Virus record (IMG/VR): IMGVR_UViG_3300029518_000136
Reading direction: 5' to 3' (one strand)
DNA from: a virus
Taxonomy: Duplodnaviria; Heunggongvirae; Uroviricota; Caudoviricetes
DNA: 5,211 nucleotides
Made by a program: the position numbers and the translations under genes. Below, piece after piece: positions 641 through 5,211 of this stretch (position 1 is its first letter; each line of letters opens with the position of its first letter). Under the pieces are notes generated by a model. It saw nothing but the letters and a program-made list of their open reading frames with translations. It made no database searches and was not told the origin of the DNA.

Positions 641-2469
641 GTGATCAGTTTGACGCAAAAGCGTTTTTAAAAACCGTAACCAGCCAGCCAGGCGTTTATC
701 GCATGTACGATGCTGGTGGTACGGTTATCTATGTCGGCAAAGCGAAAGACCTGAAAAAACGGCTTTCCAGCTATTTCCGTAGCAACCTCGCTTCGCGCAA
801 AACCGAAGCGCTGGTCGCCCAGATCCAGCAAATTGATGTAACGGTTACTCATACAGAAACCGAAGCGCTGTTGCTGGAACACAACTACATCAAACTCTAT
901 CAGCCGCGTTACAACGTTTTGCTACGCGATGATAAATCTTATCCCTTTATCTTCCTGAGTGGCGATACCCATCCGCGTCTGGCGATGCATCGTGGTGCGA
1001 AGCATGCTAAAGGTGAATATTTCGGCCCGTTCCCGAATGGCTATGCCGTACGTGAAACACTGGCGCTACTGCAAAAGATTTTCCCCATTCGCCAGTGCGA
1101 AAATAGTGTTTATCGCAATCGCTCGCGTCCGTGTCTGCAATATCAGATAGGGCGCTGTCTGGGACCGTGCGTTGAAGGACTGGTGAGTGAAGAAGAATAC
1201 GCTCAGCAGGTCGAGTATGTGCGCCTGTTTTTGTCTGGCAAAGATGATCAGGTGCTTACGCAACTCATTAGCCGTATGGAAACTGCCAGCCAGAATCTGG
1301 AGTTTGAAGAAGCGGCACGTATTCGCGACCAAATTCAGGCGGTGCGACGCGTCACCGAAAAACAGTTTGTGTCCAATACCGGCGACGACCTCGACGTTAT
1401 TGGTGTGGCGTTCGATGCGGGAATGGCTTGTGTCCATGTATTGTTCATTCGTCAGGGCAAAGTGCTCGGCAGCCGCAGCTATTTCCCGAAAGTGCCTGGC
1501 GGTACGGAACTGAGCGAGGTGGTAGAAACCTTCGTAGGTCAGTTCTATTTACAAGGCAGCCAGATGCGCACCTTACCGGGTGAGATCCTGCTCGATTTTA
1601 ATCTTAGCGATAAAACGCTGCTCGCCGATTCCCTTTCAGAACTGGCGGGACGCAAGATTAATGTTCAAACCAAACCTCGCGGCGATCGGGCGCGTTATCT
1701 GAAACTCGCGCGCACCAATGCGGCGACGGCCTTAACCAGCAAACTTTCGCAGCAATCTACCGTTCACCAGCGACTGACCGCGCTTGCCAGCGTGTTGAAA
1801 TTGCCGGAAGTGAAGCGGATGGAGTGCTTTGACATCAGCCATACCATGGGTGAACAAACCGTCGCTTCCTGTGTGGTGTTTGATGCTAACGGCCCGCTGC
1901 GTGCGGAGTATCGGCGCTATAACATTACTGGCATCACGCCGGGCGATGATTATGCGGCGATGAATCAGGTGCTGCGTCGGCGTTATGGTAAAGCCATTGA
2001 CGACAGTAAGATCCCGGATGTGATCCTTATCGACGGCGGCAAAGGCCAGCTTGCGCAGGCGAAAAATGTCTTCGCCGAACTGGATGTCTCATGGGATAAA
2101 AATCATCCGCTGCTTCTTGGCGTTGCCAAAGGAGCAGATCGTAAGGCTGGGCTGGAAACGCTGTTCTTTGAGCCGGAAGGTGAGGGATTTATTTTGCCGC
2201 CAGATTCTCCCGCGCTGCATGTTATCCAGCATATTCGCGATGAATCACACGATCACGCGATTGGCGGGCACCGTAAGAAACGGGCGAAGGTCAAAAATAC
2301 CAGTTCCCTGGAAACCATTGAAGGCGTCGGGCCAAAACGTCGGCAAATGTTGTTGAAATATATGGGCGGTTTGCAAGGTTTACGTAACGCCAGCGTTGAG
2401 GAAATTGCAAAAGTGCCGGGTATTTCGCAAGGTCTGGCAGAAAAGATCTTCTGGTCGTTGAAACATTGA
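637..2469 (+). CDS. uvrC: Excinuclease ABC subunit C (UvrC), 610 aa, GTG start
   Basis: N-terminal GIY-YIG nuclease signature ([24 protein letters not shown] ... YNV), central UvrBC-interaction region, C-terminal helix-hairpin-helix ([40 protein letters not shown]). Length and N-terminus [14 protein letters not shown] match E. coli UvrC as I recall it. 4-nt overlap with the uvrY stop. Confidence 0.95.
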
Positions 2470-3152: not shown

Positions 3153-3225
3153 GCAACGCATCGAACGGCGGCACTGATTGCCAGACGATAATAAAATCAA
3201 GTGATTAACTGATTGCTTGATGAAT

Positions 3226-3301
<76 letters not shown>

Positions 3302-3441: not shown

Positions 3442-3528
3442 GCCCGGATGGTGGAATCGGTAGACACAAGGGATTTAAAATCCCTCGGCGTTCGCGCTGT
3501 GTGGGTTCAAGTCCCACTCCGGGTACCA
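3442..3528 (+). tRNA. leuZ: tRNA-Leu (anticodon UAA), 87 nt, long variable arm
   Basis: GCCCGGATGGTGGAATCGGTAGACACAAGGGATTTAAAATCCC...GGGTTCAAGTCCC...CCGGGTACCA: anticodon stem-loop GGGAT-TTTAAAA-ATCCC with TAA anticodon, class II variable arm, T-loop TTCAAGT, encoded CCA. T-stem here reads GTGGG/CCCAC. Confidence 0.92.
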
Positions 3529-3567: not shown

Positions 3568-3599
3568 TGAAACCACCTACGGGTGGTTTTTTTGTTTTT
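3568..3599 (+). terminator. Rho-independent terminator downstream of the tRNA operon
   Basis: 8-bp stem AAACCACC (3570-3577) / GGTGGTTT (3582-3589) closing a UACG (UNCG-type) tetraloop, followed by TTTTGTTTTTG. Confidence 0.65.
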
Positions 3600-3618
3600 G
3601 TGCTTCATGTTCACCATT

Positions 3619-3641
3619 GTTTCGCCATTCAGTTTCGCCAT
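3619..3641. repeat. Tandem direct repeat GTTTCGCCAT x2 (3619-3628 and 3632-3641) in the att-int spacer
   Basis: Two identical 10-mers with 13-bp periodicity read directly from the sequence, lying between the tRNA-operon terminator and the int 3' end. Candidate arm-type recombinase binding sites. Confidence 0.3.
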
Positions 3642-3664
3642 AAAAAGAGGGCATTACTGCCCTC
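3641..3664 (-). terminator. Hairpin with T-tract on the - strand at the int stop codon (putative int terminator)
   Basis: Perfect 7-bp inverted repeat GAGGGCA (3647-3653) / TGCCCTC (3658-3664) with a 4-nt loop containing the int stop codon; on the - strand it is followed by TTTTTA (plus-strand A-run 3642-3646). Confidence 0.4.
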
Positions 3665-4664
3665 CAACGACCGGAACAACTGAAATTCTTCGATTATATC
3701 TCGCTGTTTGTGAGGCGTTTTTATGACCTGAAATTTCTTGTTTCTCACTCAGCGTACCTTCAAGATCCGAAATTCCTTTAGCTTTTAGATCATGGAAAGT
3801 GAACTGGAAATCGAGGTCTGGATATTTCTCAGAAGCAAGTTTTTTAGTCTTCATCCATTGCGCATTAAAAGCATCGCGCGTGTATCGCAGACCTGATGGC
3901 TGGTGGATGACAAAAATACTTACCATCCCGCTGTTAAGATGAATGCTGTCAGCAAGATTAACGGCATCCTCCAGACGTTTTGTCCAGGCCTTGATCTGGC
4001 TAACTGCGGTTTTACTCTGCTGGATTAAAATTCCTTCGCTCAATAATTGACTCTTTTTTAGGTCAAGAATGTCTCCCTGGCGGGCACAACATAGATATGC
4101 CAACTCCATTGCAACTTTTACGGGAATAGAAGCAACGCTATAAAGTGCATCATATTCCCTGTCGCTAATATAACGGGTCCGAGCCTGCTCTTTAAATTGC
4201 TTCACTCCATGGCAAGGATTCATCTTCACCTTTCCTCGTTCGTATGCCCACCGAAACACCCTGGACATAAATGCTTTCTCGCGGTTAGCCTGAACTCTGC
4301 TCTTAACTCCTCGTTTATCCATATATTTTCTGATGTGCTCGGGCTTGATGTTATCCGGCTTCATTTTCCCGAAGACAACATTTACCTTTGAACCGTATTT
4401 TCTGTAGTCTTTACGTGTTTCAGTTGCTAACTCGTGGAAATCGCCGGAATTAAAGAACTCTTCACAAAGTGCGTTGAAGTTAGTACCAACCCTTAAATCG
4501 TTTATGAAGTTTTCGTAAGCTGCCCATACCTGCGATTTTGTTAGATCAGGATTGCACAACCTGACGGTACGACCATCTGTTGTACGAAACTCATAAGCAG
4601 ATTTTCCCCGACGAACGCGGGGAGGCATCCAGTTATCATCGGGGTTTTTGCGAGCTCTAGACAT
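3654..4664 (-). CDS. int: Phage-type tyrosine recombinase/integrase (lambda Int family), 336 aa
   Basis: N-terminal arm-binding-like region (NWMPPRVRRGKSAYEFRTTDGRTVRL, compare the lambda Int N-terminus pattern). Catalytic core aligns to lambda Int: box I Arg in ARQGDILDL, Lys in QQSKT, box II FTFHDLK (His present, Arg position is Lys), second His in SGHK, nucleophile Tyr in TARYNR. Position adjacent to a tRNA 3' end. Confidence 0.9.
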   Translation of the reverse strand: MSRARKNPDDNWMPPRVRRGKSAYEFRTTDGRTVRLCNPDLTKSQVWAAYENFINDLRVGTNFNALCEEFFNSGDFHELATETRKDYRKYGSKVNVVFGKMKPDNIKPEHIRKYMDKRGVKSRVQANREKAFMSRVFRWAYERGKVKMNPCHGVKQFKEQARTRYISDREYDALYSVASIPVKVAMELAYLCCARQGDILDLKKSQLLSEGILIQQSKTAVSQIKAWTKRLEDAVNLADSIHLNSGMVSIFVIHQPSGLRYTRDAFNAQWMKTKKLASEKYPDLDFQFTFHDLKAKGISDLEGTLSEKQEISGHKNASQTARYNRRISVVPVVGGQ

Positions 4665-4891
4665 TACATATCCTTAAAGTTTGGTTCTTCTTCCTCTGGA
4701 TTACTCACTATCAACTTAAGGCCAACCGGGTTTGATACATGATCCCATGTTGTTCCTGGTCTGCCGTCCTTACGTGGGATAAAAAATACCCCACTATCCC
4801 TCAGAGCTTTACACTGGAGGGAAGGGCGACGATAACCAGTTAATTGATAGAGGTCATCTGGAGTAAGAAAACGTTGGATTTGTCCGCTCAT
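4664..4891 (-). CDS. xis: Excisionase-like small DNA-binding protein (Xis), 75 aa
   Basis: Small ORF directly upstream of int, overlapping it by 1 nt (TAATG). Pattern YRRPSLQCKALRDSGVFFIPRKDGRPGTTW resembles the lambda Xis winged-helix region (RRPRSL...R...IFPPPVKDGREYLF). GGAG Shine-Dalgarno 8 nt upstream of the ATG. Confidence 0.7.
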   Translation of the reverse strand: MSGQIQRFLTPDDLYQLTGYRRPSLQCKALRDSGVFFIPRKDGRPGTTWDHVSNPVGLKLIVSNPEEEEPNFKDM

Positions 4892-4924
4892 ACATAGTTC
4901 TCCACTTAAACCGGCTGCACCCGG

Positions 4925-5203
4925 TTACTTCATTCTGTAAGCACACGATGAACAACCGTGACGGGTTCCATCGTTGCAATTGCGACATAATGGACTTTCT
5001 TTCGAACTTTTCCCATTTAGCTGACGAAGTATCTCTACTGGCACCATTACCGGCATTGGTACACGAATCACCATGCTTCTGAGTTCAGCAATTTCGTTTG
5101 CCTGTTCGAACACTCGCGCCTTACAGTATTCAGCTTCAGATTTCCACCATGCCACATCCGCTTTGAGGCGACGCCCACGCCGCTGCTTGAGTTTACTGGG
5201 CAT
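4925..5203 (-). CDS. Hypothetical small Cys-rich phage protein (C-x2-C-x7-C-x2-C zinc-ribbon-like C-terminus); possibly 5'-extended beyond the window
   Basis: 92-aa ORF upstream of xis with a basic N-terminus (KLKQRRGRRLK) and C-terminal CRNCNDGTRHGCSSC. The reading frame stays open to the window edge, so the true start may lie beyond 5211. Occupies the position that small ea-type ORFs occupy upstream of xis in lambdoid phages. Confidence 0.5.
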   Translation of the reverse strand: MPSKLKQRRGRRLKADVAWWKSEAEYCKARVFEQANEIAELRSMVIRVPMPVMVPVEILRQLNGKSSKESPLCRNCNDGTRHGCSSCAYRMK

Positions 5204-5211
5204 GAATATTC

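Follow-up and report, generated by a model that had tools for sequence, protein, structure and literature searches.

What does the small cysteine-rich gene next to the excisionase gene xis in a lambdoid prophage do, and is it bound to xis by function or merely by position? The question is raised by a 5,211-nucleotide (nt) stretch of DNA, hereafter the window (IMG/VR virus record IMGVR_UViG_3300029518_000136, Caudoviricetes), whose minus strand carries an open reading frame (ORF) of 92 amino acids (aa) directly upstream of xis. An initial annotation, made from the letters alone, read the product as a possible homologue of lambda Ea8.5 with a C-terminal cluster of four Cys. The answer given here is a different one: the four-Cys tail of the protein, referred to as the knuckle, follows xis from phage to phage, an invariant stem-loop lies between the two genes, and the relationship to Ea8.5 does not go beyond position.

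The linkage of the knuckle to xis was assessed with a scan of IMG/VR by the knuckle codons alone, which is blind to the downstream sequence and which recovered 85 distinct contexts. The sequence CCGG(G/T)TGCAGCCGG stood directly after the stop codon in 85 of the 85, one copy being cut at the contig end; loop position 1 was G in 62 contexts and T in 23, and TGGAG and a start codon came after the element in all contexts where sequence remained. Every knuckle protein whose locus was fetched was encoded by the gene immediately upstream of an excisionase-integrase pair, and the pairs belong to different types: DUF4224 with a 336-aa integrase, lambda-type Exc (PF07825) with an Arm-DNA-bind_1 integrase at icd, a 69-aa type with a 392-aa integrase, and a 68-aa type with an Arm-DNA-bind_2 integrase. 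The N-terminal module of the protein (N-module, aa 1-56) is also found in truncated form or with different C-terminal tails, of which there are at least three. Two of these variants were looked up; both belong to rightward operons, in which they follow replication genes and directly precede terminase, far from xis. Since the N-module without the knuckle is found away from xis, it is the tail, and not the N-module, that tracks xis. The modularity was derived from the homologue alignment together with a profile search that ran exhaustively through 1.84 billion representatives.

In the window protein (MPSKLKQRRGRRLKADVAWWKSEAEYCKARVFEQANEIAELRSMVIRVPMPVMVPVEILRQLNGKSSKESPLCRNCNDGTRHGCSSCAYRMK) the Cys pattern is C73-x2-C76-x7-C84-x2-C87, just as the initial annotation had it (Cys codons at 4987-4985, 4978-4976, 4954-4952, and 4945-4943), and a fifth Cys, C27, is not conserved. 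No change was seen among 75 homologues at C84, C87, N77, G79, R81, G83, or S85, and at least 90% of them keep C73, C76, D78, and S86. The knuckle also exists in other flavours (CGSCCDWARNGCGTCIFKE and CEVCVEGARGGCSTCAFNRQ); its consensus is C-x2-C-x-[DE]-[GW]-x-R-x-G-C-[SG]-[ST]-C-x-[FY], of which C, C, R, G, C, and C are invariant across all flavours. The Cys residues and the residues around them are conserved across homologues, and the motif is therefore not due to chance. It is carried by at least six unrelated N-termini, always at the extreme C-terminus; the partners are a 380-aa DUF3850-domain protein (P0158), a 197-aa protein, and several proteins of 58-113 aa, most of which have a predicted coiled-coil stretch before the tail. 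Judged by this distribution, the knuckle is a portable cassette tied to the boundary of the recombination module, and with its two conserved CxxC pairs and turn-forming Gly it resembles a single-site C4 zinc knuckle or mini zinc ribbon and quite probably binds zinc. Some prophages carry frameshifted tails (P0129 and P0138; L044, about 10150-10250, minus strand) in which the Cys motif is lost and the frame reads through the stem-loop; these copies are apparently decaying.

The element at the junction is an 18-nt stem-loop (AACCGGGUGCAGCCGGUU), the outer AA of the stem being two bases of the TAA stop codon of the ORF. It sits between the accessory genes and xis; in all phage contexts TGGAG(A) comes 2-12 nt after it and leads on to the xis start, and in the window the stop codon, stem-loop, Shine-Dalgarno sequence, and xis ATG all fall within 36 nt. 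The chance expectation of the element in the window is 0.04. It was found in the window, at loci L002, L010, L015, L017, L019, and L021, and at about 150 IMG/VR loci. A scan of IMG/VR by its central 14-mer gave 123 matches, 86 of which have the Shine-Dalgarno sequence and represent phage xis junctions. About eight sequence types of xis or recombination directionality factor (RDF) follow the element, and most of these are followed in turn by an ORF of 330-440 aa. In the alignment of gene ends the 14-mer is invariant, as against the abundant synonymous change in the adjacent knuckle codons. The pair flanking it covaries, being A-T in 31, C-G in 11, and G.T in 11 of 65 contexts, a result reached in 0 of 2000 shuffles; this covariation supports a stem, with the limit that the independent events are few and are partly imposed by the stop codon. 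On comparison of the sequences, the stem-loop behaves as a recombination junction for module exchange.

Several other identities of the stem-loop were considered and rejected. It was not accepted as an intrinsic terminator, there being no T-run on the sense strand; a terminator scan flags it in this window on the antisense strand only, with a tail that falls within codons of the ORF and lacks conservation at other sites. A cII-type TTGC-N6-TTGC site and a sigma-70 promoter were dismissed on sequence misfit, with no promoter-like site at that place, and no Rfam family matched at E<=1. In the complete genome of mEp390, a cultivable phage with the whole arrangement, no second copy of the element beyond chance was detected. 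A genome-wide scan for the stem-loop plus TGGAG returned mostly chance matches in GC-rich genomes, the genuine sites being confined to Enterobacterales. The literature search found the 14-mer in no paper and nothing relevant on the region upstream of xis or on mEp390. Lambda (NC_001416; L003, about 1600-1625, minus strand) has a GC hairpin with a T-run, terminator-like in appearance, just upstream of xis instead of the 14-mer. Four tandem copies of the 14-mer with a 42-nt period were seen in an unrelated IMG/VR contig (L095, 11435-11574) and are probably a coincidental repeat.

It could be argued that the ORF is a chance reading frame, or that its amino-acid conservation is a by-product of the DNA element. 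An invariant DNA element does abut it, and the Prokaryotic Genome Annotation Pipeline leaves a 97%-identical copy unannotated in complete E. coli genomes. However, the homologues form 284 clusters of matching length (mostly 86-92 aa, all from Enterobacterales where the source names the organism), and the median pairwise ratio of nonsynonymous to synonymous substitution rates (dN/dS) is 0.20 at a dS of about 1.1 for 81 distinct full-length coding sequences. In the nucleotide alignment the third positions of the knuckle codons are free to change, with many synonymous changes right beside the invariant 14-mer, and the ORF both has a Shine-Dalgarno sequence and overlaps the gene upstream. Regional dN/dS values are 0.22 in the N-module, 0.36-0.49 in the linker, and 0.07-0.12 in the knuckle, the last value being biased low by the fishing of loci with the knuckle codon pattern. 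As judged from these ratios, the ORF is under purifying selection. It is almost certainly a real gene, and an origin by chance is effectively refuted.

The ends of the gene are also settled. The initial annotation described a 92-aa product with a strongly basic N-terminus, encoded directly upstream of xis in a frame open to the window edge, and this description holds: 7 of the first 16 residues are Lys or Arg versus one acidic, and the niche is the same as that of lambda ea8.5 and orf55. Its doubt about the true N-terminus was justified within the window but is resolved by the sequence past position 5211. The E. coli assemblies L004-L009 encode an identical protein, and in them an in-frame TGA lies two codons 5' of the ATG, with only ATA and TTC in between; therefore, 92 aa is the full length. 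The same TGA rules out the case that the annotation had named as damaging, namely an ORF running into a much larger upstream protein. In these assemblies the Shine-Dalgarno sequence AAGGTG lies 7 nt upstream of the ATG, just beyond the window, and the stop of the upstream gene overlaps the ORF start by 11 nt, which is consistent with translational coupling. At the other end, 33 nt separate the ORF from the xis start codon. The protein matches PHROG 14816 (unknown function) from end to end (E=1.6e-34, residues 1-90 versus profile positions 1-87 of 89). A 57%-identical copy, gp29 of mEp390 (YP_007112446, "hypothetical protein"), occupies the same place upstream of an annotated excisionase and integrase; its deposited start (L002, 3992-4270), MAAM..., lies three codons upstream of the family start MVSKLK....

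The part of the protein before the knuckle begins with a basic region, in which Lys or Arg stands at positions 4, 6, 8, 9, 11, 12, and 14 (K6, R8, and K14 being near-invariant by column statistics), followed directly by the invariant residues D16, W19, W20, and E23. The 3-4 spacing of hydrophobic residues is unbroken, with a/d positions at 13, 17, 20, 24, 27, 31, 34, 38, 41, 45, and 48. Two AlphaFold runs on different alignments gave a single helix over aa 4-44 with a predicted local distance difference test score (pLDDT) of 87-97, after which the confidence is low. The models and the heptad pattern suggest that this helix is likely a coiled-coil oligomerisation segment.

Such a basic helix might belong to an arginine-rich-motif RNA binder of the lambda N/Nun type, acting via QRRGRRLKADVAWW. 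The boxB-binding peptide of lambda N has RRxRR-6-W spacing, the same as that of QRRGRRLKADVAWW, and R9, R11, R12, W19, and W20, none of which varies, lie in a helix predicted with confidence. However, the likeness consists of five residues in a low-complexity motif, the gene lies at the distal end of the operon and not beside a nut site, and inheritance of the N-module is not coupled to that of the stem-loop. Nor does the 6-nt loop GUGCAG resemble boxB, and mEp390 has the element only once. We consider an N-like role very improbable. The order of a long N-terminal helix and then four Cys also recalls the RNA polymerase secondary-channel binders TraR, DksA, and lambda Orf73, and the lambda exo-xis region does encode Orf73, a protein of this kind (PMC9239242, PMC8614690). 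Several points speak against this explanation: the Cys pairs are spaced by x7 and not by about x17, the helix begins with a strongly basic N-terminus versus the acidic DxxDxA tip of TraR and Orf73 (PMC8614690), and the protein has no Pfam match at E<=1, hence none to the DksA/TraR zinc-finger family. A secondary-channel binder is in our view highly improbable.

We tentatively suggest that the ORF encodes an oligomeric, nucleic-acid-binding small regulator whose zinc knuckle acts at the xis junction, on either the stem-loop or Xis/Int, a proposal to which we give somewhat less than an even chance. By its helix the protein would assemble into a parallel coiled-coil oligomer, in which the basic N-terminal helices face nucleic acid, and the four Cys would bind one Zn and so provide a small second contact module. 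The knuckle would then bind the stem-loop, as RNA or as DNA, or act on Xis/Int, at the junction beside which it is always encoded, and the outcome would be a tuning of Xis production or of excision during transcription of the early-left operon. What suggests that the function depends on the xis junction is that no other part of the protein is as constrained as the tail, that the tail has many N-terminal partners and was never seen elsewhere, and that the N-module occurs elsewhere only without this tail. That the protein binds nucleic acid is nearly an even call, and that its function is tied to xis or excision is somewhat less likely than not. The view that a small DNA- or RNA-binding regulator is plausible, already expressed in the initial annotation, can be retained. 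A more specific form of the proposal, in which the knuckle and the stem-loop make up one excisionase control cassette, must be called unlikely; here the knuckle would bind CCGG(G/U)UGCAGCCGG, 5-10 nt upstream of the xis Shine-Dalgarno sequence, and would set the amount of Xis made from early-left transcripts. If it were true, the cassette would represent a new layer of excision (directionality) control across lambdoid phages, whatever the RDF or integrase family.

A number of results weigh against a regulator acting at the junction. A knuckle ORF precedes the stem-loop at only 35 of the 86 phage-type sites (41%). Most of the remaining sites are preceded by a 3'-5' exonuclease gene, as in phage mEp460, which has the stem-loop and no knuckle ORF upstream of xis or elsewhere in 14 kilobases (kb) of its early region. 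Folding of window positions 4860-4965 gave a structure no more stable than those of shuffles (z=0.26); the xis Shine-Dalgarno sequence lies outside the stem-loop and is not sequestered, and no larger masking RNA structure was found. Because of the z value and the unsequestered Shine-Dalgarno sequence, an unmasking of the kind exerted by Com of phage Mu is without structural support. The AlphaFold models are of low confidence in the region of the putative single Zn site, with a pLDDT of about 44-55 for aa 63-92 and about 48-54 for the knuckle segment, and a more diverse alignment raised the knuckle value only from about 48 to about 54. Searches of the window protein against Pfam, NCBIfam, PADLOC, the PDB (by sequence and by profile), and Foldseek gave no homologue of known function, the best PDB match being a MYND-finger fusion at a nonsignificant E of 0.58. 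Moreover, one knuckle tail occurs in combination with four or five xis types and one xis with different upstream genes, and phages cease to resemble one another in sequence at the edges of the stem-loop. In the comparison of the window with mEp390, for example, identity steps across the stem-loop from 57% in the ORF to 88% in xis (the annotated excisionase of mEp390) and 87% in int. Given these breaks and the variety of xis types behind one tail, the linkage of knuckle and xis could be purely historical.

If the linkage is historical, the ORF would encode an accessory protein unrelated to excision, which would address a host or phage target via the surface formed by D16, W19, W20, and E23 and via RVPMPVxVP. 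Its role might be host takeover, a bias of the lysis-lysogeny decision as exerted by the lambda exo-xis proteins, or counter-defence. The knuckle would be a stabilising or oligomerising zinc tail, and the stem-loop with the Shine-Dalgarno sequence would be the only shared homology available for lambdoid recombination, from which the tail spreads. Besides the exact breaks of similarity and the variety of xis families behind one tail, this explanation is favoured by the fact that the N-module functions with other tails in other contexts and that the stem-loop stands without the knuckle at 59% of sites. There is also precedent in the mosaic lambda-family Ea22 proteins, which combine a common N-terminal and coiled-coil part with swapped C-terminal domains (PMC10834534), and in the exo-xis genes that affect the lysis-lysogeny decision without touching recombination (PMC3824215, PMC8614690). 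However, the knuckle was never seen away from xis, neither in the 85 of 85 contexts nor in any of the contexts looked up, and its standing as the most constrained part of the protein is unexpected in an appendage that is free to travel with N-terminal partners. We regard a purely historical linkage as the main rival explanation, somewhat unlikely and a little less probable than the regulator proposed above.

The coordinates of the features are collected in the table below. Ahead of the prophage end, the window contains uvrY, uvrC, and pgsA of E. coli and then the transfer RNA (tRNA) genes for tRNA-Gly, tRNA-Cys, and tRNA-Leu(taa); after these, on the minus strand, comes the left end of a lambdoid prophage with int, xis, and the ORF under study. 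The tRNA-Leu gene (leuZ, 3442-3528) adjoins the prophage end, and the leuZ terminator hairpin lies at 3569-3590. Because identity with nearly all E. coli genomes ends at about 3601, attL can be placed at roughly 3600-3650. The prophage is lambdoid and integrated beside leuZ, and the ORF is the last accessory gene of its early-left (pL-type) operon. At 4664, one base is shared by the xis stop and the int start, which suggests translational coupling of both recombination genes.

Features of the xis end of the prophage in the 5,211-nt window (all on the minus strand)
Feature	Position	Strand	Remarks
int	3654..4664	-	336-aa tyrosine integrase; Phage_integrase, PHROG 1
xis	4664..4891	-	75-aa DUF4224-type excisionase; DUF4224 E=3.6e-14, PHROG 1266 "excisionase" E=1.5e-29
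xis initiation region	4889..4903	-	Shine-Dalgarno GGAG at 4903-4900 inside conserved TGGAGA; ATG at 4891-4889
Stem-loop AACCGG-GTGCAG-CCGGTT	4909..4926	-	invariant 14-mer CCGGGTGCAGCCGG at 4924-4911
Complete 92-aa ORF	4925..5203	-	ATG at 5203-5201, TAA at 4927-4925; PHROG 14816 member
C-terminal knuckle, aa 73-89, C-R-N-C-N-D-G-T-R-H-G-C-S-S-C-A-Y	4937..4987	-	putative single Zn site
RVPMPVxVP proline-rich motif, aa 47-55	5039..5065	-	ends the helix; common to all tail variants
Five-heptad amphipathic helix, aa 13-48	5060..5167	-	predicted from models and column hydrophobicity
Basic N-terminal region, aa 4-14 (KLKQRRGRRLK)	5162..5194	-	K4, R9, R11, and R12 invariant

The upstream neighbour of the ORF (window 5204-5211 and beyond; L004, 7727-8011) encodes a 94-aa protein of PHROG 625 (unknown function) without a Pfam match; a relationship to the DUF3850 domain, which is fused to the knuckle in P0158, was rejected, no similarity having been found. 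In the same locus, about 1.4 kb between the gene of a cI-like repressor and the first early-left genes (L004, 2229-3616) have no called gene. This stretch contains a tRNA gene (RF00005, 52 bits, 3178-3250) and, beside the repressor, a sub-threshold match to an AgvB-like small RNA; no N-like gene is evident. E. coli MB20 (NZ_CP073976; L001, 7400-8600) is among the few complete genomes with the 97%-identical int-xis-ORF block. All that is left of the prophage in these genomes is a remnant, interrupted immediately 5' of the ORF by an IS1 and a ParB pseudogene.

In lambdoid phages, the small accessory proteins encoded near xis in the early-left operon influence the lysis-lysogeny decision and prophage induction, including that of Shiga-toxin phages, and few of their mechanisms are known. 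For the present family, the Ea8.5-like label is removed from the ORF, and PHROG 14816, which has no Pfam entry, is defined as a three-module protein, made up of the basic region with its contiguous five-heptad helix, the RVPMPVxVP motif, and the four-Cys knuckle. Small zinc-binding accessory proteins near xis are already known, such as Ea8.5 and the TraR-like Orf73; by sequence the window family appears unrelated to them, and the portable tail and the junction element are what distinguish it. Should Xis synthesis be under the control of the tail or the stem-loop, a new element would be added to the control of prophage excision; if not, the stem-loop would still be a clean example of a conserved junction for lambdoid module exchange. 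Since mEp390 is cultivable and has the whole arrangement, the question is directly testable.

Among known systems, Ea8.5 was the obvious candidate. It is a small (93 aa versus 92 aa), non-essential, Cys-containing, and poorly understood protein from the xis end of the early-left operon, and lambda ea8.5 lies together with orf55 between ea22 and xis (PMC8614690; also seen in the lambda genome). Lambda Ea8.5 itself was recognised by Pfam PF20735 (1.1e-48), PHROG 6325, and PDB entries 2M7A/2M7B. At E<=1 to 10 the window protein matched neither PF20735 nor PHROG 6325, nor 2M7A/2M7B by phmmer or profile hmmsearch, and Foldseek did not reach 2M7A/2M7B either. BLASTP gave no alignment between the two proteins, and hhalign of the 75-sequence profile with an Ea8.5 alignment that included both PDB sequences gave a probability of 0.1%. 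The Cys/His residues of Ea8.5 are in the N-terminal part (C27, H29, and H30) and in C84-x2-C87, whereas the four conserved Cys of the window protein all fall within 15 C-terminal residues (aa 73-87), after one long helix. The Ea8.5 fold is homeodomain-like (PMC8614690), a three-helix bundle, whereas the models of the window protein show one helix and no helical bundle. Membership in the Ea8.5 hybrid homeodomain/zinc-finger family, which the initial annotation had raised as a possibility, is refuted at the level of detectable homology and has a negligible probability left; as far as these comparisons reach, the likeness is positional only.

Ea22 (Ead_Ea22, PF13935) resembles the window protein in its early-left location, its shared N-terminal and coiled-coil part, and its interchangeable C-terminal modules. 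However, the window protein has no PF13935 match, is much smaller, and ends in a zinc-knuckle tail tied to the xis junction in place of an alpha/beta domain. With the basic leucine zipper (bZIP) DNA binders it shares a basic segment that runs into a heptad-repeat helix, but it has no bZIP signature or Pfam match and carries an additional Pro-rich motif and the knuckle; on the predicted models, the likeness is one of layout and not of family membership. Com of phage Mu is a small protein with a zinc finger, and its gene directly precedes mom; it activates mom translation and binds a hairpin in the mRNA next to the ribosome-binding site of mom, and its finger is N-terminal, with longer Cys spacing. 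In contrast to that system, the hairpin described here is also found in phages without the knuckle protein, the xis Shine-Dalgarno sequence is not masked, and the window protein shows no Pfam match or homology to Com. Both genes are nevertheless small and lie directly upstream of their putative target, with a hairpin beside the ribosome-binding site of that target, and we therefore suggest that Com and mom may serve as the nearest mechanistic analogy, not as a homologous system, for the knuckle gene and xis.

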